From positions 1 through 30,609 of the forward strand of contig WRFK01000001.1 of assembly GCA_009778835.1 (NCBI GenBank): a stretch of DNA of 30,609 bases, written 5' to 3'. Positions 426 to 27,949 of the stretch are shown here, one piece after another; positions within the stretch are counted from its first letter, which is position 1; each line of letters opens with the position of its first letter. Both the position numbers and the translations under genes were made by a program. The notes under the pieces are model-generated. The model was given only the letters and a program-made list of their open reading frames with translations. It had not been told where the DNA came from and searched no databases. This DNA is from Spirochaetaceae bacterium. Lineage in GTDB: Bacteria; Spirochaetota; Spirochaetia; CADAEX01.

Positions 426-427
426 GT

Positions 428-11886: not shown

Positions 11887-12629
11887 ATCAGAATAGAAAA
11901 AAAATCGATGTTATTGGTATTCCTGTTGATGCTCTTACATATGAAGAACTTGAAGCAAAAGTAAAGGAACTTCTTGCTGATCAAAAAAAACATCATATAT
12001 TGTTTCTTTCTCTGCGCGATATAGTAATGGCAAAATTTAAAAGAGAACTTAGGACAAATATTGAAACAGCAAGCCTAATACTTCCAACCTCTTCATATAT
12101 ATGTTCCGGCGCGAAATTTCTAAAAAGAGCGTATATTCCCCAAAAAATATATACTTTTGAATTTATTATAAAACTGCTTGGCGCAATTGAAAATAACGGT
12201 AAATCGGTTTATCTGCTTGGGGGAAAGCGGGATGTCTTGCAGGTAACAGAATCCAATATAAAATCTTCTTTTCCCGGGTTAAATATTGTGGGAAGATGCA
12301 CAGGATTTTTTCCAAAAGAAATGGAGAAAAATATTATTACTGCGATAAAAAAAGCTTCGCCTGCTCTTGTTCTAGCAGGTACCGGGCTACCCAGAAAAAG
12401 ATATTGGGTTACAAGACATAAATCCTTTTTTAATCCCGGTATATTTTTATGGGTGGACAAAGCTTTTGATATTTTTGTAGGTAAAAAATCCAAGCCCGCA
12501 AGGACAACAGGCGGTATATTTTTGGAAAAAGCAGGAAGGCTTATTCGAAACCCTTTGCGGATATTTAATATTTTTATTTATATTTTATATTTTATTCTGC
12601 TGCTTTATTATAAGATAAGAAAACATTAA
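11871..12629 (+). CDS. WecB/TagA/CpsF-family glycosyltransferase-like protein (divergent motifs)
   Basis: IGIPVDAL, VYLLGG, FPGLNIVG..GFF, AFDIFVG, RLIRNPLR align to the TagA layout; several conserved residues are changed. Confidence 0.75.
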   Translation: MDTLLNQNRKKIDVIGIPVDALTYEELEAKVKELLADQKKHHILFLSLRDIVMAKFKRELRTNIETASLILPTSSYICSGAKFLKRAYIPQKIYTFEFIIKLLGAIENNGKSVYLLGGKRDVLQVTESNIKSSFPGLNIVGRCTGFFPKEMEKNIITAIKKASPALVLAGTGLPRKRYWVTRHKSFFNPGIFLWVDKAFDIFVGKKSKPARTTGGIFLEKAGRLIRNPLRIFNIFIYILYFILLLYYKIRKH

Positions 12630-12632
12630 AAA

Positions 12633-13100
12633 TCAGTTAGCATCATAAAGCTTAAGATATTCATAAATATCTTTTAGCTGATTTTCCATTCTGGATGTGA
12701 TGAATCTTCCCACACTGTTTCTTATTACAGGAATAAAAAGAAAAAGGCCTATTCCATCTGTTATAAAACCAGGTGAAATCATAAGAAGAGCGCCAACAAA
12801 AACTCCGGCAAGGCCAATGAACTCTTTCCCCGGATATTCCCCGTTTTTTAGTTTTCTTTTTACTTGTTTTATTAAGGTTTCGGTTTCACTAAAAGCTATT
12901 AACATTCCCAAAAGAGCAGTTGCCGCAGTTGCTGCAATAACCAGATAATTTCCAAAAATTCCGCCGGCATGGAGTATAAGAAATATTTCCGCAAGAGGGA
13001 TTAGGGAATAAAGCAATGCAAGCAAAAGCAGTTTTAAAATAAATTCTTTCTGAAACAAACGCATTATAAAACTTGTATCAAACATGCCTAAGTTTATCAT
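12633..13100 (-). CDS. fxsA: FxsA family membrane protein
   Basis: PLAEIFLIL, GALLMISPGFITDGIG...IPVIR. Start uncertain (ATG 13100 or 13085). Confidence 0.85.
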   Translation of the reverse strand: MINLGMFDTSFIMRLFQKEFILKLLLLALLYSLIPLAEIFLILHAGGIFGNYLVIAATAATALLGMLIAFSETETLIKQVKRKLKNGEYPGKEFIGLAGVFVGALLMISPGFITDGIGLFLFIPVIRNSVGRFITSRMENQLKDIYEYLKLYDAN

Positions 13101-13245
13101 AAAAAAAAACAATAAATCAATAAAGTAAATCTCATTCCTTGCTCGAACTCACTCCATGCTCGCGACGCGCCGGGGCAAGCCAAACCGGGACAAACCCAAT
13201 TCCAATAGTCCCGCTTGAGGAAAAGCAAATTGAAAACATAAAAAT

Positions 13246-13274
13246 TTGACTATTCATTTTTTTAATATTAAGCT
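13246..13274 (+). promoter_or_regulatory. Sigma70-type promoter for trxA
   Basis: TTGACT-17 nt-TAAGCT, followed by an AGGAGG ribosome-binding site before ATG 13305. Confidence 0.6.
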
Positions 13275-13304
13275 ATAAAGAATAGTTGTTTTAGGAGGGG
13301 GATA

Positions 13305-13637
13305 ATGTCTGTTGAAATTTTAAATGAAAATACATTTAAGGCAAAAATTATTGAAGGAAAAGAGACTGCAATTGTTGATTTTTTTGCTGATTGGTGCGGG
13401 CCTTGCAGAATTTTAGGTCCTGTTTTGGATTCTATATCCGATGATTTGAAGGGAAAACTTGATTTTTATAAAGTAAATGTTGATGATGAAAATAATCTTG
13501 CTGCCCAATATAATATAATGACTATTCCTACCATAGTATTTTTTAAAAATGGAGAAAAAGCAGACAGCTTTGCAGGCGCCATTCCAAAAGACAAGATAGT
13601 AAGTTTTATTGAAAAAAATATTAAAAGCAATGCCTGA
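13305..13637 (+). CDS. trxA: Thioredoxin
   Basis: VDFFADWCGPCR, IMTIPT; 110 aa. Confidence 0.97.
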   Translation: MSVEILNENTFKAKIIEGKETAIVDFFADWCGPCRILGPVLDSISDDLKGKLDFYKVNVDDENNLAAQYNIMTIPTIVFFKNGEKADSFAGAIPKDKIVSFIEKNIKSNA

Positions 13638-14010
13638 AAAAACTGTTGTTATTCTGGGGGCAAGCAATAATCCCGAGAGATATTCCCACAAGGCTTTAAA
13701 AATGCTTGCAGAGTACGGGTATAAAACCATTCCTGTGCATCCTCAGCTAAAAGATATTGATGGAATAGAAGTTAAAAACAGCTTGATGGATATTAGCGAA
13801 GAAATTTATACACTTACAGTTTATGTTGGTCCTGAAAAAATAGTTCCCTTAATTCCTGATATCGTTAAATTAAAACCACAGAGGGTTATTTTGAATCCGG
13901 AAACAGAATCCAAAGAGCTAAAAGAAGCTCTTGCTAAAGCATCAATATTGCATACAGAAGCATGTACCCTTATTCTTCTTAAAACAGGACAGTTTGAAAA
14001 AGCATTTTGA
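13630..14010 (+). CDS. CoA-binding protein (YccU-like)
   Basis: VVILGASNNPERYS, PVHP, TLTVYV, RVILNPET, EACTLILL. Start likely ATG 13630. Confidence 0.88.
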   Translation: MPEKTVVILGASNNPERYSHKALKMLAEYGYKTIPVHPQLKDIDGIEVKNSLMDISEEIYTLTVYVGPEKIVPLIPDIVKLKPQRVILNPETESKELKEALAKASILHTEACTLILLKTGQFEKAF

Positions 14011-14037
14011 CAGGACGTATTAAGAGAGGAGATATTA

Positions 14038-14070
14038 AAAAAGCTATCCATGATACATGGATAGCTTTTT
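14038..14070. terminator. Bidirectional intrinsic terminator
   Basis: Perfect inverted repeat AAAAAGCTATCCATG-ATA-CATGGATAGCTTTTT between convergent genes. Confidence 0.85.
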
Positions 14071-14099
14071 CTTATAATAAGAATTAAAAGTTTAATTTA

Positions 14100-14849
14100 T
14101 TAGAGGCTAAAACCATAACCTAAGCGGAGGCTTATAATGTTAGGTCTTGCATTATGTTTGCCACCATCTGTGCCCATATAAGGAGCGTTTGAACCTTTCA
14201 TATTATCTACTTCCACCCAATTCATGGCTGAAAACATTCTTCTGTATCTTAGATCAAACAAAACAGTTCCATTTCCTGCTGGAAGCGCATAGCCTACGCC
14301 AATAACAGCTGCAACCAGTGCAGCGCCTTCTTCAACAGTTGTGTCTTCGCCGCCTGCGGCATCTTTGTTCCACTCTCTCTCACTCTTCATTGGATTTAGA
14401 AACAGCGAAGGACCTACTAAAATAGCCATTTTACCGGGACCTGCGTCAAAATTAATTCTTGCAAGTAGAGGAATTTCAAAATATGTAGTTCTTACGGTCA
14501 GTGATGTTTCTCCCTGTCCTGTTGCTTCAGCAGTCATTTTAATGCTGGTTTGAATAATATTGATTTCCGGCTGGATAGAAAACATTTCGTTTATTGCTAT
14601 TTCAAAGAAAAGCCCTACTTCAACACCTAAAGTAAATGCAGTTCCTGTACTAATACCTGGACCAGGTGTTTCCCCATGCCAAATTGGTCTGGCATTAGCA
14701 CCGGTTTCAACACCATCAACAAAATCTTTCCAGTCACTGCCGGTAACAAAACTGTTATTAAGGCCTAAAGCAATACCAAATTTGTTGTCTGTAGCAAACA
14801 GAGATGTTGCAATCAGCAGACACACTAAAATTAAACCAATTTTTTTCAT
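14100..14849 (-). CDS. Outer-membrane beta-barrel protein (PorT/OMP_b-brl-like)
   Basis: Signal peptide ending LFA, FSIQPEIN, YFEIPLLAR, LFDLRY, C-terminal strand LRLGYGFSL. Confidence 0.8.
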   Translation of the reverse strand: MKKIGLILVCLLIATSLFATDNKFGIALGLNNSFVTGSDWKDFVDGVETGANARPIWHGETPGPGISTGTAFTLGVEVGLFFEIAINEMFSIQPEINIIQTSIKMTAEATGQGETSLTVRTTYFEIPLLARINFDAGPGKMAILVGPSLFLNPMKSEREWNKDAAGGEDTTVEEGAALVAAVIGVGYALPAGNGTVLFDLRYRRMFSAMNWVEVDNMKGSNAPYMGTDGGKHNARPNIISLRLGYGFSL

Positions 14850-14932
14850 GTAATCTCCTTTTCTGTCATGCTCCCTTGAGGAAGCTACAATATTTATTAA
14901 CCACCCTCAAGGGCAGCTTATATTATTTTATT

Positions 14933-14961
14933 ATAATAACAATAAGTAAATAAATTGGCAA
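14933..14961 (-). promoter_or_regulatory. Sigma70-type promoter for the beta-barrel gene
   Basis: TTGCCA-17 nt-TATTAT on the minus strand; AGGAGA ribosome-binding site before the ATG. Confidence 0.5.
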
Positions 14962-14995
14962 TAAAAAATTTTTTTTGCCTAATTTTATTCTGTTT

Positions 14996-15424
14996 TTATT
15001 CTGTATCAAAATCAATTTTTTTGGTTATGAGAGGATATTGCTGTTTTCTGGTAAAGGAGCTATATAAAAAAGCTATTGCAAAACCAATAACAAGTCCTGC
15101 AAATCCACCCAGGAGTTTTATCCCATCGGATAATGTATTTGTAAGGTTTGCTGTAAGATAATATCCTGCAAGAAACATTAGTAAAGGGAAAATCAAAATA
15201 GAAAAACTATATCCAATAGTTTTGGATGGAGATATAAATACTTCTACATTATCGCCTTCTCTAAGATCAAGATTATCGGTGTTTAATGCTTTAAATTCTC
15301 TCCCTTTTTCACTGGCTTTGCAGAAAAACCTTGATGCAGGGCAGGTTTTGCAATGGCTGGTGTCGCCGCATGTTACAGTTATAATATTTTTATCAACTGC
15401 TGTTACAGTTCCCCGGTCATACAT
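14996..15424 (-). CDS. RseC/MucC (SoxR-reducing system) family protein
   Basis: C-x4-C-x2-C-x5-C cluster (CGDTSHCKTCPASRFFC), GDNVEV, two TM helices. Start likely ATG 15424. Confidence 0.8.
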   Translation of the reverse strand: MYDRGTVTAVDKNIITVTCGDTSHCKTCPASRFFCKASEKGREFKALNTDNLDLREGDNVEVFISPSKTIGYSFSILIFPLLMFLAGYYLTANLTNTLSDGIKLLGGFAGLVIGFAIAFLYSSFTRKQQYPLITKKIDFDTE

Positions 15425-16248
15425 TCTTCTTTCTCCGCTACACAAGATTTTCTTATTCTTTCTATGGTTATTGCTTTTCCTGTTTCCGGATCAACATCAA
15501 TAAGCACTCCCTGCAGCTCAAGATTATCCCAGCAATCGCGGGAACGTTCGGGAATTTGAGAAAGGAATTTTTTTATTTCGATCTGGGGCTCAAGTCCTCC
15601 TACAGAGGTTTGGCTTCCTGTTCTTCCTGCATCTGTTATCGCAGCAGTCCCTTTGGGCAATATTTTTTCATCTGCGGTCATAACTTTTGTATGGCTCCCT
15701 ATTATCGCGGAAACTTTTCCCTCCGCATGATAGATCATTGCCTTTTTTTCAGCAGTTGTGGCTGCGTGGAAATCAAAAATAATAATATTTGTCTCTTTTT
15801 TGATTTTATCCGCAAAATCAGGAAGATAATAAAAAGGGTTATTCAGATATATCCTGTTAAACCCGGAATTACCAAGCAGCGTTAATACGCCAATTTTATA
15901 TTCCCCTGCCTCATATATTCTATACCCTCTTCCCGGAACATTGGGAGGATAATTTGCAGGCCTAAGCAGAAAAGGAGCTTTGGGGATATAATCAACCATA
16001 TCTTTTTTAAAAAAGACTTTTTCCCCTGCAATAAGAACATCTATTCCCAGTTTTTTAAGATAAACTGCATGGGTTTTCCCTATTCCAAAACCGCCTGTTG
16101 TCCCTTCGCACCCTGCTATTGTAAAATCTACAGCAAGGTCTTTTTTAAGATCAGGGAGAAGTTTTTTTATACAAAAAACACCCCCTTTTCCTGTTATTTC
16201 AGCAATATAAAGTATTTTCAAACCCAAGATATGCCCCTTTATTTTCAT
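15403..16248 (-). CDS. YmdB/TIGR00282-like metallophosphoesterase homologue with degenerate active site
   Basis: LRPANYP, DFHA...EK, GSHT, ILPKGTAAITDAGRTG align to YmdB. Confidence 0.85.
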   Translation of the reverse strand: MKIKGHILGLKILYIAEITGKGGVFCIKKLLPDLKKDLAVDFTIAGCEGTTGGFGIGKTHAVYLKKLGIDVLIAGEKVFFKKDMVDYIPKAPFLLRPANYPPNVPGRGYRIYEAGEYKIGVLTLLGNSGFNRIYLNNPFYYLPDFADKIKKETNIIIFDFHAATTAEKKAMIYHAEGKVSAIIGSHTKVMTADEKILPKGTAAITDAGRTGSQTSVGGLEPQIEIKKFLSQIPERSRDCWDNLELQGVLIDVDPETGKAITIERIRKSCVAEKEECMTGEL

Positions 16249-16468
16249 TTAAAAGCTAGCAATTTATTTTGTATTTGGCAATATAAGAGCCAATTGGCAG
16301 CACTATTTTCCAACGAGCTGATCGGTGGTGAAGGTTTTTTCCGGGTTTTAGCAGATCAAGCTTCAGCAGGTTAACGTGGATTTTTAATACAAAATCAATA
16401 ATATAACCCAAAGGAGCTGATAATTGCTTGCCTGCAAGTAATAATATGAAGTGCTGTTGCTCTGCTTC

Positions 16469-16497
16469 TTGACACACTTGTAGGGCTTGTTTATATT
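16469..16497 (+). promoter_or_regulatory. Sigma70-type promoter for the tRNA
   Basis: TTGACA-17 nt-TATATT ending 23 nt upstream of the tRNA. Confidence 0.7.
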
Positions 16498-16519
16498 TCA
16501 AAATGATCATATTGATCCT

Positions 16520-16603
16520 GCCCGGATGGTGAAATTGGCAGACACGCTAGATTCAGGTTCTAGTGCCGGTTGCGGCATGGAGGTTCAAGTCCTCTTCCGG
16601 GCA
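16520..16603 (+). tRNA. tRNA-Leu(CAG), CCA not encoded
   Basis: Acceptor stem GCCCGGA/TCCGGGC plus discriminator A, D-loop with TGG, anticodon stem CTAGA/TCTAG with loop TT-CAG-GT, long variable arm, GGTTCAAGTCC T-arm. Confidence 0.97.
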
Positions 16604-17115
16604 ATTAGCTAATTCATTTCTCTGAAAGAATATAATAAACGGAAACACATCATTATCTGATATGACCCATGATGAATTATATAATAATACTCCATTGCGA
16701 GGGGAAATTCCACTTGATCGTGTATGTACTATGACTATTACAGACACTTTAATACTCCTGATTTCACAGAATAAGAAAAACGCCACTTACTAGAGGTTTT
16801 AAGCTCGAATGAAGCAGGAAAGTTTACCTTCATATAAAGCTGGCAAAGAAGCGTATATAAAAAAATATCCTTCTTTAGTTGATTTTATAAAACAATAACC
16901 ATAGATGAGTGGTTCAGAAAATTCCCGATTCCCGCAAACGATAATTCTTCAATCTCCTGAAGTATGACCGACCAATAATAAAAATACATAGCTGGTTATA
17001 TATTATTACATCTAAATGATTTTTATATACAATTGGTCGAGTCGTTATTTTGCAAGAGCATACAAAAATAAGTTAACAAGGCTATTTTTAGACATGATCT
17101 AGGTTTTTACTGAAG

Positions 17116-17400
17116 CTACTTTAATGGAACTATTTTAAGGGTTTTGCCAAGTGGGGCTAATATCTTAAGAACAGTATCAAGCTGAGGATTTGTTGTGCCT
17201 TTTTCCATTCTTGCAATTATAGGTTGTTTTACGCCGCTCATTTCTTCAAGCTTTTTTTGAGATAATCCTTTTGCCTGCCTTGCTTTTATAAGCTCTCCAA
17301 TAAGAGCTACACGCAAATCACTTTCTGCTATTTCTTCAGGTGTAAAAACTTCTTTTCTTACATCGTCCCATTTACTGCCAATAGCGTTACTTTTTTTCAT
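17116..17400 (-). CDS. XRE/HTH antitoxin (HigA-like)
   Basis: GLSQKKLEEMSGVKQPIIARMEKG..NPQLDT helix-turn-helix; lies downstream of the toxin. Confidence 0.88.
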   Translation of the reverse strand: MKKSNAIGSKWDDVRKEVFTPEEIAESDLRVALIGELIKARQAKGLSQKKLEEMSGVKQPIIARMEKGTTNPQLDTVLKILAPLGKTLKIVPLK

Positions 17401-17442
17401 TTTCCTTACTCCTTACTTTCAGATTCCGCACTTTCCTACTCT

Positions 17443-17799
17443 TTATTCACTATTCCTCGCTATAAAATCATTCATGTTTCTCTTCGCTTGATCTATTTCC
17501 TTCTTAGGTGTCTTTTGTGTTTTTTTTATAAAGTGATGGAGAAGTATAAAACTTTTATCTATCCATCCTATAAATAAAATACGATCCCTAAGCGGTCTTA
17601 ATTCCCATATTTTATCGCCAAGATGTTTTATATAAGGTTCACCAGCCTGAGTCCCATATAATTTTAAGATTTGAATATAGTCCTGTATTTTGTTCAGTTT
17701 TATACGATTGTCTTTGCCTTTTCTGCTTGCCAAATTTTTTATATAGTCTTTTATAGGTTCTTTCCCCTTTTTATCTTTATAAAAGAATATTTCATACAC
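17443..17799 (-). CDS. RelE/ParE-superfamily toxin (Gp49/HigB-like)
   Basis: KHLGDKIWELRP, FILLHHFIKKTQKTP..EI; GTG start with upstream GAGG; toxin-first order. Confidence 0.9.
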   Translation of the reverse strand: MYEIFFYKDKKGKEPIKDYIKNLASRKGKDNRIKLNKIQDYIQILKLYGTQAGEPYIKHLGDKIWELRPLRDRILFIGWIDKSFILLHHFIKKTQKTPKKEIDQAKRNMNDFIARNSE

Positions 17800-17820
17800 C
17801 TTTATTTTACCTCGATTTTG

Positions 17821-17865
17821 ATTATACTTTTGAGTTATTAAAAAGTCAATAACTTTTAAGTTATT
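17821..17865 (-). promoter_or_regulatory. TA operon promoter with adjacent operator palindrome
   Basis: TTGACT (17849-17844)-17 nt-TATAAT (17826-17821); perfect palindrome AATAACTT-TT-AAGTTATT at 17848-17865 overlaps the -35 box. Confidence 0.75.
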
Positions 17866-18064
17866 ACAGTTTTAAGATATTTATTTACATTTGCTGGAAT
17901 CGACGGAGTTAGGCATTTTTCAGATTGTATATAAAAATAGGTGTTAATGGCTATCATAATTTTATATAATTCGAAATGATTGCAAATACCGTTTTTTTCA
18001 TGATATGTACCGATCAATGTTATATTATACATATAAACACCAATGTTTAATTTCTTTTCTGCTG

Positions 18065-18760
18065 CTATGAATCTAGTTTTTTGTCAATAGATGAGATAAA
18101 TGTTTTTAAATGATCACAAATAAACCAAAATATAGCGTCAAATTGATTTGGCGTAAAAGTTATTGTATCTCCATGCTTCATATTAGCCCAATGTGCGACT
18201 AAATGCTTTTTTTCTTTCTCATCAACTATTCCCTTAGAGTGAATGATAATATTACGAATATTAAATAGGTTATTTATATATGTTATTCCTTGCCAGTCAC
18301 AAATAACAGGGTGAATACCATAATGTTCGCATACACGATAAATTATTTTTGCCCCTGCTGTATTTAAACAATATTTTTGAGTACAGCGATCAACAGTTGC
18401 CTTTTCCTTTATCTTAGCCTTTTTTACACGTGAAATATCTAAAATTTCTTCAAGCAGATCATTAAATGCCGTAATTAATGCGATAAAGGTTTGCTTGCGA
18501 TAATTTTGGGAGAAAGAACCTGAATTAATTAAATCTTTTATATCAGATATACTCCTTATCGAGGTTAGAGATTCATGAAAATTATCACTTGCAGATATTT
18601 TTTGATCAAGATCAATTTTATTAAATTCTATATATTCATCAAGTAAACAACATGATAAATAAAATATTAATAATTCATTTGCTCTGTATAAAAATGTATC
18701 ATATATTTTTTTGAGTTTTGAATTTTTTATACAGACTTTCCATCGATTCATATTTTTCAT
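18065..18760 (-). CDS. Hypothetical protein with HEPN-type RNxxxH motif
   Basis: Helical-looking protein with FNDLLEE and IRNIIIHSKG. GAGGAT ribosome-binding site supports ATG 18760 over TTG 18775. Confidence 0.65.
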   Translation of the reverse strand: MKNMNRWKVCIKNSKLKKIYDTFLYRANELLIFYLSCCLLDEYIEFNKIDLDQKISASDNFHESLTSIRSISDIKDLINSGSFSQNYRKQTFIALITAFNDLLEEILDISRVKKAKIKEKATVDRCTQKYCLNTAGAKIIYRVCEHYGIHPVICDWQGITYINNLFNIRNIIIHSKGIVDEKEKKHLVAHWANMKHGDTITFTPNQFDAIFWFICDHLKTFISSIDKKLDS

Positions 18761-18801
18761 ATTTTTTATCCTCAAGAAACATAATATTTAGAAAAGATTT
18801 T

Positions 18802-18943
18802 GTCTAACGATAAATAGATATACGACCTTGGGTGTGCCCAATAGGGATGACCTAAGGTTGTGGAGTTTTTTGTATGGGAACGAGCGGAGCGACTGACCTA
18901 GCAAAAATGTAACCAAAGCTTCTAAGGACTGCGTATGTTATAC
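18802..18943 (-). repeat. attC-like junction between Abi_C and HEPN genes
   Basis: Minus strand begins GTATAAC and ends GTTAGAC (GTTRRRY); 142 bp with internal imperfect hairpins. Confidence 0.5.
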
Positions 18944-18973
18944 GAAGTGCTATCTATATATGTTTTGAAACAT

Positions 18974-19909
18974 TTAGAAATCATTTTTGCTGTTTAAATT
19001 CTTTTCACCAACAGAAAGAATAAAATCACCCATTGTTATAGCTGCATTAACATAAAGCCTCGCATGATATTCTAAAATATTAATTCTCTTGTTCCCAAGT
19101 CCATGAGAATCACTACCTTCATTTCTCATTTGTGCGATAGAGGATATTATTTTCTCTAAACCAGACAAAAGCATATTGATACGTTTATCAATATCCTTAT
19201 TTTGGTGCATATTATAAAGTGTTTTTACCTGATTATAAAGTTTTCCTATATCGCCACTATCAGATGGTTCTTCCCCCTTTTTTTCAATAACATAACAAAA
19301 TATTTCTTCTAAAAGTGTTCTAGATTTAGTTATTGCACTGTCAAAGTTTGATTCAAGTATGTCTCTCATTGCTCGCTCGGATAAACTCTTAATATAATCC
19401 CGATCAATTTTTTTTACAGTTGGGGTTTCAACAGTAATATTTGAACCAATTTTACGAATAATAAATTGAGCACCTGATGTAATAATCTCATTTCCCCCAA
19501 AATATAAAATACCGTTTATCTTTGTAATTACTGTTTCAATAATTTTCCTATGTGCCCTTTCGATTGTTATGGGCGACATACCTTTGAGTTTGTCAACAAA
19601 TTGTTCTTTTGAAAATAAATAACTTAGAAATTTTGTCATATTCTTATTGTCAATACAGTATTTCAATAGATCATCAAAATAAGCCCATCTACTTTGGGCT
19701 CCGCCATTCCACCCATAAGAAGCAGGCAGTCCAAATGTGTTTGAAATTTCACATATAGTGGGTCCGCTCAAGTATGGCATGGAAACAGTTATTGGAGCTC
19801 CGCCATCTTCATTTTTAATTTCACCGAAATTTGTATCACCATCAAGAATGGTTATGATTTGTTTGTTACGTAATAACTCAAATTGACTATCAAGTTTATT
19901 ATTAGCCAT
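18974..19909 (-). CDS. Abortive-infection Abi_C-domain protein
   Basis: C-terminal AITKSRTLLE...LSGLEKIISSIAQMRNEGSDSHG...ARLYVNAA pattern; N-terminal domain unassigned. Confidence 0.8.
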   Translation of the reverse strand: MANNKLDSQFELLRNKQIITILDGDTNFGEIKNEDGGAPITVSMPYLSGPTICEISNTFGLPASYGWNGGAQSRWAYFDDLLKYCIDNKNMTKFLSYLFSKEQFVDKLKGMSPITIERAHRKIIETVITKINGILYFGGNEIITSGAQFIIRKIGSNITVETPTVKKIDRDYIKSLSERAMRDILESNFDSAITKSRTLLEEIFCYVIEKKGEEPSDSGDIGKLYNQVKTLYNMHQNKDIDKRINMLLSGLEKIISSIAQMRNEGSDSHGLGNKRINILEYHARLYVNAAITMGDFILSVGEKNLNSKNDF

Positions 19910-19969
19910 TTACCCTTCCATGCTTTACAAGCTACCCTATATAAGGCATATTTTACAATATATTAATAA

Positions 19970-20010
19970 GGCTAACTAATGGTGCTAATCGCGTGTTATC
20001 CGAAGTCACA
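19970..20010 (-). repeat. Shortened attC-like remnant at the FRG stop
   Basis: Minus strand TGTGACTTCGGATAAC contains the FRG TAA; GTTAGCC follows 18 nt later. Confidence 0.35.
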
Positions 20011-20961
20011 CATTTTAAGATTATTTTCCATAGATAAACAAACACCTTGAAAACCTGGAAATAAATATTCTTCTGAATATTTATCACGCTTTAATTGCTT
20101 CAAAATATCTAATTTTAAGTCTTTTGGAATAATATATTTATATAGCAACTTATTATTTTGAAAATATTCCTCACTTTCTTTAATATTATTATCAATAAAA
20201 TCACATATTAATTTATCCAATGGGCTTCTATTAATAACTTCTTGATTTAGTGCTGGGTGTAAATTAGGTAAATCAGCTAATCCTCTTTTTGTTATTTTCC
20301 ATGTCGAAAATAATCCCTTTTGAGCGCCTAGATATTTATTTCCATGATATGAAGGTCTATAAAATTGTAATGGGGATTTATTATATGCTGGCTTAAGAAA
20401 ATTAAAATATTGATGATTTATAGCCCAAACTACACAATCCTTTTTTACTTCATCAATATTGTAAATACCAGATGTGGCAAAAGATAAAGCAATTTTATAG
20501 TCATATGTCCAATCTAATAACCTTGTTGGAAGTCCATAATGCTGAGCAAGTCCTGCAATTTCCATAAAATCTTTTGGCAACCATTCTTCCGTGTTTAAAT
20601 ATGTTGATAATTCAAAATTGTCATCAATATTATTTCTAAATCTATCAACTCGCGGTAATTCTAACCCTGATCTGTCTGCAATATTATAAAAGTTTTTTAA
20701 AATATTATATTCTGCGATAATTTGCCAATTTTCCCATTCAGATTGATTTTCAACAATAGGTTTACCACCACTCAATGACCATAAATATTCTTTATTGCCA
20801 ATTCTTAATGAAGAAGGTATTAATGAGTAATTAATATCTTTTTGCCCACGAAAAACATAAGATTCATTTAAATTTGAATATTTTCCATAAAGTGCATTTA
20901 GATTAATAGCTTCTTCGGCAGATGAAATTTCATATGTTTCTAAATATATTTTATTTTCCAT
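19996..20961 (-). CDS. FRG-domain protein
   Basis: YVFRGQ...YSLIPSSLR, LAQHYGLPTRLLDWT, YLGAQKGLF, LFPGFQG. Confidence 0.92.
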   Translation of the reverse strand: MENKIYLETYEISSAEEAINLNALYGKYSNLNESYVFRGQKDINYSLIPSSLRIGNKEYLWSLSGGKPIVENQSEWENWQIIAEYNILKNFYNIADRSGLELPRVDRFRNNIDDNFELSTYLNTEEWLPKDFMEIAGLAQHYGLPTRLLDWTYDYKIALSFATSGIYNIDEVKKDCVVWAINHQYFNFLKPAYNKSPLQFYRPSYHGNKYLGAQKGLFSTWKITKRGLADLPNLHPALNQEVINRSPLDKLICDFIDNNIKESEEYFQNNKLLYKYIIPKDLKLDILKQLKRDKYSEEYLFPGFQGVCLSMENNLKMCDFG

Positions 20962-21007
20962 AAATAATTTTAAAACATTTGAAATATGTATTTAATCTGT
21001 ATTTTGT

Positions 21008-21111
21008 GCGATTTCGTATAACATATTATATACCTTTTGTATTTGCTATAAGGCGAAATACATATTATCACCAAAGTAAGGATATAATTCGAAGAAAGTA
21101 GCATGTTATAG
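21008..21111 (-). repeat. attC-like junction between res and FRG genes
   Basis: Minus strand CTATAAC...GTTATACGAAATCGC enclosing hairpin TGTATTTCGC/GCAAATACA and the ATTATATCC/GGTATATAAT pair. Confidence 0.4.
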
Positions 21112-21170
21112 TTTTTATAGGTCGAATTTCTAGTTTCAAAGAAGTAAAGATTGGAAGATTCTTTGTATTA

Positions 21171-23909
21171 TTATTCACTATATTTTGTATCGCCTGAATC
21201 GGCAGCAATTCCCATGCCATAACCATCAGGAATAATAGGATACTGAACAATATTATCAAAGTTAGGATCAACTATATTTGGGTTGTCTGCATTACTACCT
21301 GCAATCATTCGGTAAATCATATTACTGCCTGTTGCAAGAGCTTTAGCCGCTTCTTTTTTTGCCTGTACAACTTTATCTTCGAGTTTATTATCACCCTTAA
21401 TCTCAATAATTTGGAAACTGCCATTCTTCATTTCAACTAAAAAATCAGGGTAGTAGTTCCGATAACGGTATGATTCAGGGTCTGTATATCCAATGGCAAA
21501 ATCGGTTTTACTTTTATCGGTAAACATGCCAGTAAAATAGATATTTTTTACTTCTTTATTTAAAAGGAACTGAATAAAACATTCCAATTCAGGTTTTGAA
21601 TCAAAACAATAGTGAGATGCGTGGAAACTCTTGTTTTTATAATCGATAAATCTCTTTTCCTCAAAATGAGCAACCAACCCAGGGTCGGTGTAAAACTCAT
21701 AAAAGTCTAATACCCCTTCAGGCTTTTTCAATAAAACAATTTCTCTTTCAATCTCTGATGATTCAATATTAATATTATAAATAGCAGTAAATATCTTTGG
21801 AATAATTTCATCATATAGTATTTCATTATAGTCATTCACTCTATTAAGTATTTTACTAATACCGCTAATAGATTTCTCCAGGATTGCCTCAATCTTGAAC
21901 GCCCCAGTATCAGGAAAAAACCGTGCAATTTCAAAAACCAGTGTATACTCGCTAAATCTTACTTTTTCTGCAATATCGGTCACAACTGCCTTTTTATCCT
22001 GAACCGTCATTGAAAGATTTGTTTTTTCTGTGACCGTCTGCTGGTATTTGGTAACATCAATACTGTCAATATAAAAGTCAATCGGTTCTATAACATCATT
22101 CTTTCTAATATTATACTTAACCAATTTTTCCTTTATCGTGATTTTTCGCGGAGGGGGTAACATTCTTACTTTTATTGATTCATTTTTATTCTTATTATTA
22201 TTGGAAAGGTCTTTAATACTCATATTAAAGTTCTTATTCAATTCAGCGTCTAATATATCATAATTTGCTTTGGATAAATAAACTGTTGCTGTTTCCTGTT
22301 TTGGAGCTTCGTTGTCTGCTCTTATCTGTCGCATACAACGCATGGTGCTCTGTAAAACAAAAACTTTGGAAAAAGAATCACGGTACAATGCAACACCAAA
22401 CAAAGAACGACAGTTCCAGCCTTCTTTCCCTTTACCGCACAAAAGAATAAACTGCTTTTTTGAGCCTTCAGTACCAACAACATCTAAATTGTTAAAATGC
22501 CTAATTTCGTCATTACCAGTAAGGTCAGGATTACCATCACCCACATTTACAAGTATTGTAGAAATATCTATGCCTTTTTCTGCTAAAAGTTTTTCAAGAG
22601 TAGGTTTTACTTCTTTTCGTATCTCATCAACAGTAGAAGTAAATATTGCGATTTTCGGCAGCAACCCTTCAAAAGTTCTTTTTTTATAAATATCAAGAAA
22701 ACCAGGAACTTTATTACCTTCTGTATCAGTATAGCCATTCACTACGGCTCTTAAAAACTCGATATCTTTTACATTTCCAAAACCTTTAATATCGACTTCT
22801 TTTAAGTATTCAGCTCTTATTGCCTGTTTAAGACCGCAGGCGTAGACAACCTCCGGTAGTACCTGCCGTTCTACATAAGGCGTACCAGTAAAATTATAAC
22901 AAGCGACAACTTGCGTATTGTATTTCTTTAACTCCTCTGCAAGAAGATTTATAGTCGTTCTAAAACTTGTAACTTTACCGCCTAATAAATCATCTTTAAG
23001 TTTTGAACCAAACAAATGATGCGCCTCGTCAACATACACTCCAAGTTGTGGCAACCGGCATAATTTTTGAAACCTCTCATTCGGTGGCAGTAAAGTTTCA
23101 TCACTGTTTAAATCTTCATCATCTAAAATTGAAGATAGCAAACTACTAGCATACATTTTATCAACAGGCGATTTTTCTTTATGTGATTTCTTCACTATAA
23201 TTTTCTGATTATTGGTGATAATGATATTCATTATTGACTTGTCAATCGTATTAAGTGTAGTGCTTGTATCTTCCAGGAAATGAATTTTAATATTAGCATC
23301 TAAAATAAAAGCATATTCTGACGGTACAACTAAAGTTTTATCAAAATCTATAATTTCACTTGCCAATGTTTGTAAAACAGTTTTATCTGGTGCAAAAATC
23401 AAAGCATTATGACAATACGTTTTTTCTTTCGGATATTTATTCGCCAATAAAAACTCATAAAAAATACACGTTGCTATCAAACGGCTTTTACCTAGTCCCA
23501 TTGTCAAAGCGTAAATATAATTTGGATAATCTGTCCTGAATTGTTCCAGTTGCTTGAACAATACTTCTGTTTGTTCTTTTGTCTGTTGGTCAAACAGCCC
23601 CAAGCGTTCATTCGCATAATAAGACCGTTCGGAAAAATCCCCTTCTTTTTTTACCCACTGCTCAAATATTTCAATTACCTGCTTATTTTCAAAAAACTCT
23701 TTTATTAACACATACATTTCAAGTGCTTCGAATTGAGGCGGTCTAAGATAAGCTTCCGGTCTTTCTTTTCTGTCATTATAGGCAAGGAACGTTTTTGTCA
23801 ATGGTTTGTACCGTGAACGTATTTTTCCTCGTGCGTCCTCGTAGAATCCCCACAACTGTTCATAAAAGGCAAACTGTTCGTTATAGCTATCAATTTTCTT
23901 TTTTGCCAT
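21171..23909 (-). CDS. res: Type III restriction endonuclease subunit (SF2 helicase plus nuclease)
   Basis: LTMGLGKS, VDEAHH, NFTGTP, GKEGWN, LQSTMRCMR; C-terminal YYPDFLV...IEIKG. Starts 2 nt after the mod stop. Confidence 0.88.
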   Translation of the reverse strand: MAKKKIDSYNEQFAFYEQLWGFYEDARGKIRSRYKPLTKTFLAYNDRKERPEAYLRPPQFEALEMYVLIKEFFENKQVIEIFEQWVKKEGDFSERSYYANERLGLFDQQTKEQTEVLFKQLEQFRTDYPNYIYALTMGLGKSRLIATCIFYEFLLANKYPKEKTYCHNALIFAPDKTVLQTLASEIIDFDKTLVVPSEYAFILDANIKIHFLEDTSTTLNTIDKSIMNIIITNNQKIIVKKSHKEKSPVDKMYASSLLSSILDDEDLNSDETLLPPNERFQKLCRLPQLGVYVDEAHHLFGSKLKDDLLGGKVTSFRTTINLLAEELKKYNTQVVACYNFTGTPYVERQVLPEVVYACGLKQAIRAEYLKEVDIKGFGNVKDIEFLRAVVNGYTDTEGNKVPGFLDIYKKRTFEGLLPKIAIFTSTVDEIRKEVKPTLEKLLAEKGIDISTILVNVGDGNPDLTGNDEIRHFNNLDVVGTEGSKKQFILLCGKGKEGWNCRSLFGVALYRDSFSKVFVLQSTMRCMRQIRADNEAPKQETATVYLSKANYDILDAELNKNFNMSIKDLSNNNKNKNESIKVRMLPPPRKITIKEKLVKYNIRKNDVIEPIDFYIDSIDVTKYQQTVTEKTNLSMTVQDKKAVVTDIAEKVRFSEYTLVFEIARFFPDTGAFKIEAILEKSISGISKILNRVNDYNEILYDEIIPKIFTAIYNINIESSEIEREIVLLKKPEGVLDFYEFYTDPGLVAHFEEKRFIDYKNKSFHASHYCFDSKPELECFIQFLLNKEVKNIYFTGMFTDKSKTDFAIGYTDPESYRYRNYYPDFLVEMKNGSFQIIEIKGDNKLEDKVVQAKKEAAKALATGSNMIYRMIAGSNADNPNIVDPNFDNIVQYPIIPDGYGMGIAADSGDTKYSE

Positions 23910-23911
23910 AA

Positions 23912-25804
23912 TTATTCCAGCACTGTTTCAAACGATTCAGAAATAAGATCGGTTATTTTTACTTTTATCCTTCCGGCATCTTTAGGGATATCATATTCCC
24001 CTTTTACGAGGCCATTTTTTTCCGGAATGTCGATTACTGATGGCTGCATTTCTACTTCATCAAAATTAAAATCAATCATGACAGAGTCAACAAGCTCTTT
24101 CCAGTCAGAAACAGTAGTTCTTTCAAGGCTTAACTTTTGCATAAGATTTAAAGGATAAAACTTTCTGATAATCAGTTTGCTTCCCTTGCGTTGGATATCT
24201 GCCTCTGCCTCCCGTTTCAATTCAAGTACATCCTTATTCCTTAAAATATCTTCAATTTCTACATCAATCTTGTAATTGGCAAGTTGCTTTTCCATCTCTG
24301 CTTTTAAATCAGGTTCATGTCCCATACAAACAAGCGTTATCTGTAAAACCGCTTCATGGGGATTTTTGTCTTTTTTTTCTTCAAATTCTTTATAAGGTAA
24401 ATTCGTTATCAAAGCGGAAATATCAACCTTACTTGCGATACGGTTTATGGGCAATATTTTTATCATTCGTCCGTCTCTACTGCCGTCATAATAGGAATTT
24501 GTTTCAAATTTTTGAATACCAAGAGCTTCTATGAGCAAATCCTTTGCCTGTACAGGATTATTAAAGAAGTCGTAATTATTAACATTGTAGATTCTGAAAC
24601 TTGTGTACCTTTTTTCATCTATTGGCAAATCTGCATCTATTTCTTTTTTTATTTTTGTTAAACGCTTCATGGTAGTTTGAATAGCTCCAAGATTTATATC
24701 AGCGCCAATGAAACGCCTTCCAAGTCTCATTGCGACAGCCTGGGTGGTTCCGGAACCCATGAAACAATCGAAGATAAGATCACCGGGGTTGGAAGATGCT
24801 TTAATGATACGTTCAAGGAGCGCTTCTGGTTTTTGTGTGGGATAATTCTCATTTTCGTTTGAAACACCTTGTACTGGCACAATATCGGTCCAAATATCTT
24901 GTAACGGAATACCTTTTGATTCATCTAAGTACATTTTTTTTCTCGGTACCATTCCTGGCTTAGATTGGAATATTTTACCTTGTTCGAGTAACTCGTTCAT
25001 ATTCTTTTGTGAATACTGCCAAAACCTGGTTACTCCTAAAAACGCATACCTTGGGTTCCCTTTTATTTCTCCGCCTGGTGCTGTAAGTGAAACAGACTGC
25101 CATCTGCGACCGTCTGAATCTTTATATGAAAATGTCTTATCTATATAACTTTGTTCATAAGGTGTATAAATTTCATTTATTTTTGCAGCATCACTCTTTT
25201 GGTATAGTAAAATGAAATCTGTTATCCTTCCTAAATGTTTTGCGCCTTGTCCTATATCACCATGGGCGAAAGTTCTTTTTCGCGAAATATGATTTATAAA
25301 ATTATTATTCCCAAAAACTTCGTCCAATAGTATTTTTATATAATGTCCACGTGTTGGATCACACTGAACCCAAAGTAACCCCTTATTTGACAGAAGCTCT
25401 CGTATAACAATCAGCCTTTCAAACATGAATTGCAAATACTCATCATTTGACCAAATATCGCCGTACTGCTTGTCTTCAAAAGTGGTAAAATCACTTGTTG
25501 TTGATTTTCCTCGAAGTTCAATTTGCTTTTTATAATCCGCTTTTGAATCAAAAGGTGGGTCAATGTAGATAAGGTCAATCTTACCCCTGAACTCTTTTAG
25601 CAGGTGGCTCATAACCTGTAGATTATCGCCCCAATACAAGCGGTTAATCCAACCATCCTGTTCCTCGCCGATACACTCCCTGCTCTGGGCAGGGAAGTAT
25701 TGTGTTGAAGTATAGGGCTGTTTGCCTTTCCAGTTTAGGTGAGGATAGCCTTTTATGGGCTCGAATTGAAATTCTTGCTGATCGCTGGACATGAGAAACT
25801 CCAT
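23912..25804 (-). CDS. mod: Type III R-M adenine methyltransferase (beta class)
   Basis: WGDNL, IYIDPPF (motif IV) before TQKPEALLERII and DCFMGSGTT (motif I). Confidence 0.92.
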   Translation of the reverse strand: MEFLMSSDQQEFQFEPIKGYPHLNWKGKQPYTSTQYFPAQSRECIGEEQDGWINRLYWGDNLQVMSHLLKEFRGKIDLIYIDPPFDSKADYKKQIELRGKSTTSDFTTFEDKQYGDIWSNDEYLQFMFERLIVIRELLSNKGLLWVQCDPTRGHYIKILLDEVFGNNNFINHISRKRTFAHGDIGQGAKHLGRITDFILLYQKSDAAKINEIYTPYEQSYIDKTFSYKDSDGRRWQSVSLTAPGGEIKGNPRYAFLGVTRFWQYSQKNMNELLEQGKIFQSKPGMVPRKKMYLDESKGIPLQDIWTDIVPVQGVSNENENYPTQKPEALLERIIKASSNPGDLIFDCFMGSGTTQAVAMRLGRRFIGADINLGAIQTTMKRLTKIKKEIDADLPIDEKRYTSFRIYNVNNYDFFNNPVQAKDLLIEALGIQKFETNSYYDGSRDGRMIKILPINRIASKVDISALITNLPYKEFEEKKDKNPHEAVLQITLVCMGHEPDLKAEMEKQLANYKIDVEIEDILRNKDVLELKREAEADIQRKGSKLIIRKFYPLNLMQKLSLERTTVSDWKELVDSVMIDFNFDEVEMQPSVIDIPEKNGLVKGEYDIPKDAGRIKVKITDLISESFETVLE

Positions 25805-25812
25805 ATTTTGAA

Positions 25813-25829
25813 GTAATATAATATATTAC
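25813..25829. promoter_or_regulatory. Palindromic candidate operator between divergent mod and XRE genes
   Basis: GTAATATA-A-TATATTAC, 9 nt upstream of the mod ATG; AT-rich, so chance is possible. Confidence 0.4.
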
Positions 25830-25894
25830 CATGTAATACTATACATTATAGCATATTCCTTAAAGCAAGCAATAATATATGTTCAATTAGATAT

Positions 25895-26218
25895 ATGAAA
25901 AATGGGCAGGAATTACAGAAGGTTTTAGGCACAAATATAAAAATTAAACGGAAAAGAATGTGCTTAAGTCAGGAAAAATTGGGTGAAATAGTAGATGTCT
26001 CTAGAAATTGCATCAGTGATCTTGAAGCAGGGAATAACTTTATCGGATCGGAAGTATTAGCACGGTTGGCGAATGCTTTGGAGACAGAAGTTTATGAACT
26101 TTTTAAGACTGATGATGTATTACCGGATAAGGCTACAGATGTTTTACTAAAATACTGCGAAGAGATAAAAAAAATCGCTGAAAAGACAAAGAAAGATTAT
26201 CTTCGAAAAATGAAATAG
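25895..26218 (+). CDS. XRE-family HTH transcriptional regulator
   Basis: LGTNIKIKR...SQEKLGE...SRNCISDLEAG, LANALETEVYELF. Confidence 0.88.
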   Translation: MKNGQELQKVLGTNIKIKRKRMCLSQEKLGEIVDVSRNCISDLEAGNNFIGSEVLARLANALETEVYELFKTDDVLPDKATDVLLKYCEEIKKIAEKTKKDYLRKMK

Positions 26219-26237
26219 AGTATAAATATTTAATAGT

Positions 26238-26313
26238 GCCTATTGTTTGCAGTAAAACCTAAAATCGCAGTTTTCGCATACCCTGTTTGATGAACTTTTA
26301 TGTTCAAAGTTTC
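26238..26313 (-). pseudogene. Detached 3' end of a helicase-nuclease gene
   Basis: Encodes NFEHKSSSNRVCENCDFRFYCKQ-stop; 26247-26313 matches 29518-29584 at 56/67 nt by manual alignment. Confidence 0.85.
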
Positions 26314-26583
26314 TGTTGGCAGCGAGAAAGGAGTTATTAGTTGGTTGATAGAAATCCACTAATTGTGGAATAGGATGAACAGGTTGTGGACAGTTTAGAA
26401 AACATAATTGTAAATGATTTAGTTATTTGATACTATTTTCACTGAGTTTTATTGAAAATTCCTTGGTGGCAAGAAGCAATGTAAATGAATTGCAAGGCTG
26501 ATTTATTACATGTTTGACAAGGAATCAATGATAAAGAAATATGACAACTAGTTATTTATTAAAATTTTAAGGGATAGTTTGCC

Positions 26584-27684
26584 ATGAATAGAATTATTTT
26601 AATAGGTAATGGTTTTGACCTTGCTCATGGTTTAGGTACTAAATATACAAATTTTATTGATGATTTTTGGATGACAAAATTAAATACTTTTATTGATTCA
26701 TTAAAAAATAACAGTTTAACAAGAGTACCGGATTATGATACTCCAAATTATGATACTTTTATCTATACTGATAATGATATTTCTATTTATGTTAAGGATT
26801 ATCAGCATATTTTTCAAAGTGCAGAAATAGTTGAAGCAGAAACTGGTTTTCAAACATTCTGTAATTTTATTTCACACTTTAGACCTAATGCACATCAGCG
26901 CAATTGCAAATTTAACAATCTATTCTTAGGTCAAATTTCTGGAAAATACCAATTGGAAAAATGGGTAGACATTGAAGAAGAATACTATTCTGCCCTACTT
27001 AATTGTTTGGAAAATAAAAAGAACATAACAAAGCTTAATAAAGACTTCAAGCGAATTCAAATTCTATTGCAAATATATTTATCCAAACAAATTGAAAAGA
27101 AGATTTCGCTTAATAAAAACATAGAGAAAAACATGTATTTACCATTATTACAAGCTGATTTTATTGAGGACATTAATGAAAATAAGTTAGATAAAGTTTT
27201 CTTCCTAAATTTTAATTATACATCAACTATTAAGCTATACTCTGATTGCCGTAAAGATGTTAAAACAATCAATATACACGGGCAAATTAATAACCCCAGC
27301 AATCCAATTGTCTTTGGATATGGTGATGAAATGGATGATAACTACAAAAGAATTGAAAAAGAAAATAATGATTTTCTTCAACATGTAAAATCATTTATGT
27401 ATTCAAGGACAAATAATTATAAGGAATTACTCGCATTCATTAATTCTGATGTGTATCAAGTTTATACTATGGGTCTTTCATGCAGTACATCTGATAGGAC
27501 GTTATTGAGCACTCTTTTTGAACACGAACATTGCAAATCAATTAAAATATTTTATTATAACAGAACCAGTAGTGAAAATGATTATCTTGATATTTATATG
27601 AATATATCACGAAGTTTTAAAAATAAAGAAAAAATGAGAAAACTTGTTGTTAGTTTTGAAAACAGTATCCCCTTAACAGATTAG
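26584..27684 (+). CDS. AbiH-family abortive infection protein
   Basis: IILIGNGFDLAHGL.TKY..F, FLNFNYT, IHG, FGYGDE, MGLSCSTSD. Confidence 0.88.
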   Translation: MNRIILIGNGFDLAHGLGTKYTNFIDDFWMTKLNTFIDSLKNNSLTRVPDYDTPNYDTFIYTDNDISIYVKDYQHIFQSAEIVEAETGFQTFCNFISHFRPNAHQRNCKFNNLFLGQISGKYQLEKWVDIEEEYYSALLNCLENKKNITKLNKDFKRIQILLQIYLSKQIEKKISLNKNIEKNMYLPLLQADFIEDINENKLDKVFFLNFNYTSTIKLYSDCRKDVKTINIHGQINNPSNPIVFGYGDEMDDNYKRIEKENNDFLQHVKSFMYSRTNNYKELLAFINSDVYQVYTMGLSCSTSDRTLLSTLFEHEHCKSIKIFYYNRTSSENDYLDIYMNISRSFKNKEKMRKLVVSFENSIPLTD

Positions 27685-27715
27685 TTATTAAAAATATTGC
27701 ATAGACTTTGTTTTT

Positions 27716-27949
27716 ATGCAGGGCGATACCTATGCGGAAGCCTTTGAAAATATCCAGGATGCAATGGAAGGCTGGATTGAAACAAAACTGGAAAATGGGC
27801 TTTCAATTCCAAAACCCGTTGATGAAAGCCAATATAGCGGTAAATTTGTCCTTCGTGTTCCTAAAACCCTTCATGCTCGTCTTGTCATGGAGGCTGAAAA
27901 AGAAGGTGTGTCGCTTAATCAATATGCGCTGTATCGGCTGAGTATGTAG
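27716..27949 (+). pseudogene. hicB: 5'-truncated HicB-family antitoxin
   Basis: Starts at MQGDT.EAFENI.DA; C-terminal SGKFVLRVPKTLH ribbon-helix-helix intact; in-frame stop at 27689; no hicA nearby. Confidence 0.75.

Follow-up and report, generated by a model that had tools for sequence, protein, structure and literature searches.

A probable relic integron cassette array within a tRNA-linked defence island of a termite-gut spirochaete

The locus and its intergenic sites

The window analyzed here (30,609 nt; WRFK01000001.1) is one entire contig of G000, a metagenome-assembled genome of a termite-gut spirochaete (1.76 Mb, 36% G+C, 59% complete) that derives from termite-gut metagenomes. Housekeeping genes occupy nt 1–16500, and a defence island extends from a tRNA-Leu(CAG) gene to about nt 29450. 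Within this island, and read on the minus strand, a type III restriction-modification pair is followed by an FRG-domain gene, an AbiJ-type abortive-infection gene and a gene for a 231-aa orphan protein. This segment, together with the attC-like integron sites of its junctions (J1 to J4, Table 1), is the subject of the present study. An earlier note, made from the sequence alone, had described it as a degenerate integron cassette array of three genes. That description holds for the FRG gene and for a decayed attC after the AbiJ gene, and is not supported for the third gene, for which no attC of its own could be demonstrated.

Table 1. Features of the cassette-like segment and its borders (positions are those of the window)
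Feature	Position	Strand	Remarks
tRNA-Leu(CAG)	16519..16604	+	left border of the ~13-kb defence island with the array; synteny with congeners ends at the tRNA 3' end
HigA/HigB-type (helix-turn-helix (HTH) / Gp49) toxin-antitoxin pair	17116..17799	-	downstream of the array
J4, uncertain remnant	17897..18025	-	R''-like ATATAAC at 18025-18019, 40 nt past the 231-aa stop; no partner R'
231-aa orphan, probable HEPN-fold protein	18065..18760	-	slot after J3 R'; structure matches; R-x4-H motif
J3, decayed long attC	18802..18943	-	R'' GTATAAC 18943-18937, R' GTTAGAC 18808-18802
AbiJ-type abortive-infection gene, 311 aa	18974..19909	-	Abi_C/HEPN C-terminus; PADLOC AbiJ 5.7e-84; Pfam Abi_C 4.3e-18
J2, attC cut to 32 nt	19970..20001	-	GGATAAC..GTTAGCC; R boxes 6/7 complementary
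FRG cassette inverse core region	19995..20009	-	GTGACTTCGGATAAC, over the stop codon; 12/15 complementary to own 5' end
FRG-domain gene, 321 aa	19996..20961	-	PADLOC candidate defence family PDC-S15, 1.2e-30; Pfam FRG 6.7e-17
FRG cassette 5' end	21008..21022	-	G|TTATACGAAATCGC, R' core plus cassette-specific extension; 16-mer identical in L037 and L034
J1, attC-like imperfect hairpin, 96 nt	21016..21111	-	between type III res and FRG; R'' CTATAAC 21111-21105, R' GTTATAC 21022-21016
Type III restriction-modification pair	21171..25804	-	res 21171-23909, mod 23912-25804; upstream of the array

The core criterion applied to attC sites was an R'' box RYYYAAC and an R' box GTTRRRY, mutually complementary and 57–141 nt apart (up to ~200). 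The cores in the window are one base off RYYYAAC, yet they fit the lineage consensus drawn from G013, a genome of the same family whose integron has at least 10 attCs of 70–114 nt (R'' A[CT]ATAAC, R' GTTAT[AG]T) with the same cores as the window. At J1 and at J3, the R'' and R' boxes are complementary in 6 of 7 positions.

The motifs named in the earlier note are all present on the minus strand, GTTATACGAAATCGC lying at 21022–21008. Its reverse complement does agree with the FRG stop region (20009–19995) in 12 of 15 positions, the stop codon TAA (19998–19996) being inside the match, and the interval from GTATAAC to GTTAGAC ahead of the HEPN gene is indeed 142 nt. The third match, TTCGTATAAC (18946–18937), is 10/10 as described, but it had been placed at the end of the Abi_C open reading frame (ORF) and in fact sits 28–37 nt past the AbiJ stop codon (18976–18974). 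The 12-mer ATATAATTCGAA was found at 17964 and 21082, its sole copies in the genome, each followed on the plus strand by ATGTTATA (18017–18024, 21103–21110). As a signal this repeat does not exceed chance, one such pair being about what is expected in 4.4 kb of AT-rich DNA (estimate ~1.5 pairs).

The FRG gene, J3 and a family of long attC sites

The FRG gene, which belongs to PDC-S15, itself a candidate system only, gives the clearest picture. The 16-mer at its 5' boundary is invariant between the window, L037 (an orthologue with 84% amino acid identity) and L034 (63%), and the DNA to the left of the G is unrelated in all three (alignment A3); L037 has the same 20-mer at the 5' end of its FRG gene and unrelated DNA before it. 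Homology between the window and L034, L035 and L036 spans 21022 to 19984, beginning at the G of GTTATACGAAATCGC and ending 12 nt beyond the stop codon, so that G|TT is conserved as a boundary in independent contexts. The two ends of each unit are also complementary to one another, in 12 of 15 positions in the window, 13 of 15 in L034 and 13 of 15 in L037 (9/15 for the end of the neighbouring cassette in L037), and more distant FRG genes reach 20/21 (L042) and 23/24 (L043). Integron recombination between G and TT predicts both a boundary at G|TT and complementarity of a unit's own ends, the latter being expected of a circular cassette opened inside its attC. In L037 the FRG gene is followed by an intact attC of 172 nt (R'' ATATAAC, AAAC, L'' GGTAACTG ... 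L' CAGTTACC, TAGAAC, R' GTTATAC), which is predicted to fold at -42 to -49 kcal/mol with its ends paired in the minimum free energy (MFE) structure (free-energy difference, ddG, of 0). In L042 and L043, which are sediment contigs, the distant FRG genes lie between attCs of the same family as that of L037. On these sequence comparisons the FRG gene is certainly a former integron cassette, and the alignments show it to travel as a unit whose left edge is the predicted integron crossover point G|TT. The idea that FRG and AbiJ form an obligatory pair was rejected, as orthologues of FRG occur as cassettes of one gene and AbiJ homologues are found on their own.

J3 is the second site with clear relatives. 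With nt 18855–18955 as query, a BLAST-type search of 400 genomes of the class matched G071 (2.8e-7), G235 (3.5e-6, twice), G195 and G212. These matches are elements of ~180 nt, composed of R'' (CGTATAAC or GCGCATAAC), AG, L'' GTCTGTTTACG ... L' CGTAAACAGCC and GGAAC, with GAT, GTC or GCT in place of GTT at the R' position. In alignment A6, J3 is colinear with the ~180-nt attCs of G235, G071 and G212 and with the attC of L037. All have the same R'', the block TTTTGCTAGGTCAGTCGCTyCGCTC-TTCCCA and a 3' GTCGTA-N12-GTTA, and J3 has two deletions, of 14 nt (removing the L'' box) and 28 nt. A profile for nhmmer, made from six attC sites of foreign spirochaetes or metagenomes with the window left out, gave a single significant match in the whole genome (1.76 Mb), at 18944–18821 (envelope 18945–18802, E 3.1e-7). 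The earlier note had held that the absence of any attC model hit would speak against cassettes, and this match answers the point. The same profile finds the attCs of L037, L042 and L043, and did not detect J1, J2 or J4. Alignment and profile thus show J3 to be, by homology, a degraded representative of a spirochaete attC family of ~180 nt, which also occurs behind FRG cassettes elsewhere.

The family itself is conserved (L037:3955-4132, L043:1047-1222, L228, L234, L227; ...CTCCGCCACATTTTGC...GCAAAACGTC-N-(G)AAC|GTTA) and is common to termite-gut and sediment contigs and to several spirochaete genomes. Its members often lie at the end of a contig, and at R' some of them read GTC or GAT for GTT. 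Contigs of four termite-gut runs have a tenfold excess of depth on nt 18808–19158, which was seen too in a run lacking the island; the loose contig ends on this stretch read, on the gene strand, CCTCACCCACATTGCC...GGTTAG (also read ...CACATTGCC...GGTTAG).

The 142-bp spacer had been called hairpin-rich, and this stands for local hairpins (plus-strand z -2.9) and not for an end-to-end fold of the whole spacer. On the plus strand only, antisense to the defence genes, nt 18822–18861 form a 12-bp stem with G-T pairs inside the decayed attC, with TTTTTT 4 nt later. A 161-nt region here has a fold z of -2.9 on the plus strand compared with -0.6 on the minus strand. The stem may be a remnant of the inner hairpin of the attC or an antisense terminator.

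The remaining sites are less regular. The first ~18 nt of J2 (to 19984), comprising R'' and ~11 nt, are homologous to the start of the attC of L034, and the homology ends there. Since the R'-like GTTAGCC brings the whole to only 32 nt from the start of R'', J2 is truncated. J1 has an R box, TATAACAT/ATGTTATA, that is paired in 8 of 8 positions, and its MFE structure pairs both ends on both strands (ddG 0, mean R-box probability 0.77–0.78, z -2.9 and -2.5). For comparison, five attCs of G013 and that of L037, used as folding controls, gave ddG 0 and R-box probabilities of 0.53–0.98. Aligned locally with the attC family, J1, J2 and J4 gave no significant score, apart from J2 against L034. Within the genome itself, each of the four intergenic spacers is unique. 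Comparison of J1, J4 and the whole segment with the integron-bearing genomes of the family returned noise only.

The AbiJ-type gene matches profile PDLC02347 over residues 7–303, a full-length match that assigns the predicted protein to AbiJ. It has more than 2000 homologues at E <= 1e-10, and the best 120 listed are 66–77% identical. This gene is probably a former integron cassette as well. In L212 (Logan SRR22038622, nt 2076–4695) a 71% identical AbiJ gene lies between an RNase T/BRCT gene and a Kiwa pair (KwaB, KwaA), immediately upstream of the latter, and gives a further defence-island setting for this AbiJ clade.

The 231-aa gene starts 42 nt past the R' of J3. Its product has no match in Pfam, NCBIfam or PADLOC and belongs to a rare family, of which six members were found; the motif R169-N-I-I-I-H174 is invariant in 6 homologues. 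The best solved-structure matches of the predicted model are HEPN proteins (Z 7.6–10.0, best 5yep_B at Z 10.0), where helical bundles need about Z 13 for a safe match, and the model has a pLDDT of 62. Matches of the model to an AlphaFold DB cluster and in the Atlas were to the RiboL-PSP, Apea and Cthe-2314 HEPN families, with TM scores of about 0.5. The protein is therefore a likely HEPN member, the weakness of the model keeping this assignment short of proof.

Beyond the 231-aa gene, the best partner for the R''-like box of J4 is GTTATTG (17853–17847), which is complementary in 5 of 7 positions, costs 5–7 kcal/mol to pair, and belongs to the -35 box of the promoter of HigBA. Together with this promoter, the HigBA module (17120–17896) is 82% identical to a copy at another locus in G001 (C53) and 79% to part of G003:C41. 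The homology to G001 ends at 17896. The module behaves as a separately moving unit, and its left edge at 17896 cuts the region after the 231-aa gene.

Integron origin and competing explanations

The segment is interpreted here as a relic integron cassette array, lying in a mosaic defence island beside tRNA-Leu(CAG) of a termite-gut spirochaete, and the probability of this is put at about 0.8. In minus-strand order it would consist of the attC-like hairpin J1, the FRG gene, the 32-nt attC J2, the AbiJ gene, J3 as a 142-nt attC without L'', and the HEPN-fold gene, which simply occupies the next slot after J3. The FRG and AbiJ genes, and perhaps the HEPN gene, would once have been captured by an integron integrase, either within an integron of which only a part was transferred afterwards, or by direct insertion at a secondary site of the island. 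The attC sites would then have decayed, as no integrase maintains them. The genes would now be fixed, presumably expressed from local promoters as single-gene defences, and the island would spread only in one piece, through homologous recombination in the flanking DNA. This is a known gene-capture system in a new place, and no new mechanism or site family is involved. The divergent spirochaete site family that had been suggested earlier is not supported, as the sites are ordinary long spirochaete attCs in decay, and the non-canonical L-box spacing is explained by the two internal deletions of alignment A6, one of which removed L''.

The arrangement of the junctions agrees with this interpretation. 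A pair of R'' (nnnnAAC) and R' (GTTnnnn) boxes with at least 6/7 complementarity, situated between a stop codon and the next start, occurs in 32 of 368 co-oriented junctions (8.7%), and the junctions Res>FRG, FRG>AbiJ and AbiJ>231-aa form the only run of consecutive positives in the genome. Similarly, KATAAC within 70 nt of the stop codon is found for 6% of 1063 long ORFs and for all 4 consecutive genes here. The lineage agrees as well: integrons with the same GTTATRY core are present in sister genera, and no intI was found in the genus itself.

Several observations weigh against an integron origin. None of the sites would pass as a functional attC: J2 falls short of the attC length and is too short to fold, the ends of J3 are unpaired in the MFE structure (ddG 1.2–2.0, R-box probability 0.01–0.02), and J1 has 14 nt unpaired on one side between its R and L stems, which makes it non-canonical, and no canonical L box. 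Of the sites folded, a check proposed in the earlier note, J1 alone paired its ends. No homologue of J1 was found among the 400 genomes of the class, and GTTAGAC, the R' of J3, coincides in part with a promoter-like -35 box. In the closest FRG relative (L032, 87%) the 5' 16-mer is missing. A custom structural attC scanner that recovered every site of the G013 control array gave 27 hits in the window compared with 12–26 in shuffled sequences, and none at the junctions with default thresholds; in AT-rich DNA the scanner does not discriminate.

The flanks of homologues, which had also been proposed as a check, divide the genes. FRG homologues carry cassette flanks, and homologues of AbiJ and of the 231-aa gene do not: in four other contexts for AbiJ and three for the 231-aa gene, only coding DNA is common with the window. 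For both genes the homology begins inside the ORF or ~30 nt before it, without a boundary at G|TT, and their own ends are not complementary (8/15 each, by eye). As a consequence, the status of these two genes as cassettes depends on the neighbouring sites. It is possible, though on balance unlikely, that only the FRG and AbiJ genes bear integron footprints, and that the HEPN-fold gene, and perhaps AbiJ, arrived by illegitimate or homologous recombination beside old attC debris. The 12-nt direct repeat ACTTCGKATAAC around the AbiJ segment (20007–19996, 18948–18937) could then be a duplication made upon insertion into the FRG attC, and such a route would fit the flanks and ends just described (homology covers the ORF plus at most 30 nt), as well as the identity of ACTTCGTATAAC, which follows AbiJ, with the coding 3' end of the FRG gene of L032. 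However, J3 is a full-length, colinear attC with an R'' and R' of its own and not half of the FRG attC. Moreover, cassette genes commonly have homologues outside cassettes, so that missing flanks elsewhere are no argument against capture here.

The opposite possibility is that the sites are still active, the cassettes being moved by an integrase whose gene lies in the missing 41% of the genome or that a co-resident element provides in trans. This is considered very improbable. In its favour are the incompleteness of the genome, the paired ends of J1 and the frequency of integron integrases in the class, where intI exceeds the NCBIfam curated cut-off in 44 of 151 sampled genomes. It is present in all three genomes of the sister genus g4, and G011 has a broken intI. 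In G000 the best match to IntI (TIGR02249) is Xer-like and scores 79.5 bits against a cut-off of 265, and none of the 5 genomes of the genus exceeds the cut-off, including four congeners that are 90–99% complete. The search for intI proposed in the earlier note accordingly found no integron integrase in G000 or in these four; with G000 only 59% complete, its absence there is not proven, which is a further point against the relic interpretation. J2 and J3 cannot form a recombinogenic hairpin. In addition, the array shows no base difference among five assemblies or runs. The contigs aligned to it contain neither an empty-site joint nor an excision joint, which is a weak observation as contigs cannot reveal rare circles.

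Rated lower again is the explanation that there are no cassettes at all, and that the motifs arose by chance in the AT-rich intergenic DNA of a tRNA-linked island brought in by a phage-type tyrosine integrase. The island does abut tRNA-Leu. In the congener G003 the same tRNA is followed by a phage-type integrase and Fic, and in G001 by housekeeping genes, with a 53-nt duplicate of the tRNA end 500 nt downstream. Nor did the motif searches proposed in the earlier note yield a genome-wide signal, the 10-mer TTCGKATAAC being present in 15 copies where ~11 are expected from base composition. The paired pattern TTCRNNTAAC-N40-70-GTTANNYGAA was no commoner in 251 genomes than its reversed control (a few of the hits are real 61-nt attCs), so the 'TTCG' extension is not a general feature; the array of genus g37 is without it. 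Chance does not account for an FRG boundary 16-mer that is identical in three unrelated contexts, or for the colinearity of J3 in alignment A6 and its unique profile match. The two explanations may also hold at different levels, an island at the tRNA and cassettes inside the island. The least probable of those weighed is a small non-autonomous transposon, to which the 15–24-bp terminal inverted repeats flanking the FRG genes of the window, L034, L037, L042 and L043 would belong. Against it, these repeats end in integron cores (..TAAC and GTTA..), the right repeat continues into a full R''-L''...L'-R' hairpin in L037 and L043, no target-site duplication is present, and the next unit starts at the next G|TT.

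As a relic array, the segment is comparable to several known systems. CALIN and SALIN are clusters of attC sites, or single attC sites, without an integron integrase, as described with IntegronFinder (PMC4889954). Here too attC-derived sites flank short co-oriented genes, with no intI nearby or in the assembly, but decay has gone so far (32 nt, a missing L'' box, a bulge on one side) that a standard attC model is not expected to accept these sites. Chromosomal integrons of Treponema have attCs of 63–132 bp and strain-specific cassettes, and T. phagedenis has lost intI while attC sites were left behind (PMC3607928). The present case is similar in its spirochaete lineage and in the persistence of sites where no intI was found, and differs in an attC family of ~180 nt, a host genus of the termite gut and the location of the relics in a tRNA-linked defence island. 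Sedentary chromosomal integrons carry anti-phage cassettes, such as Taranis (Abi_C domain) and Esos (HEPN-like), which were assayed against phages and come from intact Vibrio arrays with working attCs; FRG is not mentioned (bioRxiv 10.1101/2024.07.02.601686). The small single-gene systems of the window, including Abi_C/AbiJ-like and HEPN-like members, resemble these, but the array is a fossil of putative defence genes. IntI can also insert cassettes outside integrons at attG secondary sites (bioRxiv 10.1101/2022.09.11.507474). This would explain cassettes outside an integron platform, but the three units, lying next to one another, suggest a fragment of an array rather than separate attG insertions.

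The locus offers a base-pair-level record of anti-phage integron cassettes fixed in an ordinary defence island of a lineage without integrase, clear for FRG/PDC-S15 and probable for AbiJ. It joins two systems of gene flow that are usually kept apart, integron cassette banks and tRNA-linked defence islands. It also extends the list of defence candidates known from cassettes to FRG genes, both here and in sediment and termite-gut metagenomes, and provides a ~180-nt spirochaete attC family that can be used to mine further cassettes. A broader proposal, decidedly speculative, is that termite-gut spirochaetes seed their tRNA-linked defence islands with cassettes, by way of a trans-acting integrase and secondary sites, after which attC decay 'freezes' the cassettes and homologous recombination moves them en bloc. 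If so, integrons would be a regular source of single-gene systems in defence islands, also in genera without intI.

The surrounding island and minor observations

The island as a whole resembles other tRNA-linked defence islands in its tRNA-Leu 3' border, its variable content and its many defence genes (type III restriction-modification, AbiJ, AbiH, HigBA, HicB, DUF2971). It differs from them in that no integrase or second att repeat was found in 14 kb of island and that its inner part carries integron footprints. From the tRNA onwards it contains HigA/HigB, a 58-aa ORF, the 231-aa orphan, AbiJ, FRG and the type III res/mod pair, and beyond these an HTH gene, AbiH, HicB and a DUF2971 protein. 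No integrase was found in nt 16605–30609 and no second copy of the tRNA end in the window, and an Rfam scan of nt 16500–21500 detected the tRNA alone. The content differs between congeners, and neither AbiJ nor FRG occurs in the family's 19 other genomes. The tRNA-Leu(CAG) site is an integration hotspot in the genus. In G003 (L199 = G003:C181) the integrase is a 402-aa phage-type tyrosine integrase (5691–6899) followed by Fic and AAA_14/DUF4143 genes. A 44-nt fragment elsewhere in the genome (G000:C20:2403-2446) is 89% identical to the 3' half of tRNA-Leu(CAG) but has no tRNA call, and may be the second att end of an island.

Comparison with another assembly, L018, bears on the movement of the island. 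Its core genes left of ~16000 are only 85–92% identical to the window, and there are zero mismatches across nt 16000–29909, where the overlap ends (13.9 kb, tRNA-Leu and island). Either homologous recombination between diverged lineages has recently transferred the island as a block, or the L018 contig is chimeric.

Two further motifs were considered and set aside. CTTCGNNTAAC also occurs 3' of a 231-aa homologue in L026, but its count over 1.1 Mb of loci is that of chance, and ACTTCGTATAACATAC, which resembles a loxP arm, has no second arm. In the sister genus, the integron of G013 (L207; G013:C1:2812000-2826400) is classical, with intI divergent from the array; several of its cassettes are duplicated, and one carries a 1069-aa ORF. 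The element L221 (G145:C1:3169669-3169741) is 73 nt long with perfect 11-bp ends (TTCGTATAACA...TGTTATACGAA) and has the cores of the window. The intI of G145 is 443 kb away, and the structural scanner does not place the element in an array; it may be a lone attC or chance.

At the far end of the island, nt 26247–26313 and 29518–29584 are direct repeats of ~82% identity that represent two versions of the 3' end of a gene for a 1401-aa UvrD/PD-(D/E)XK helicase-nuclease. They bracket the AbiH-HicB-DUF2971 block, which suggests that this block was inserted at the end of that gene.

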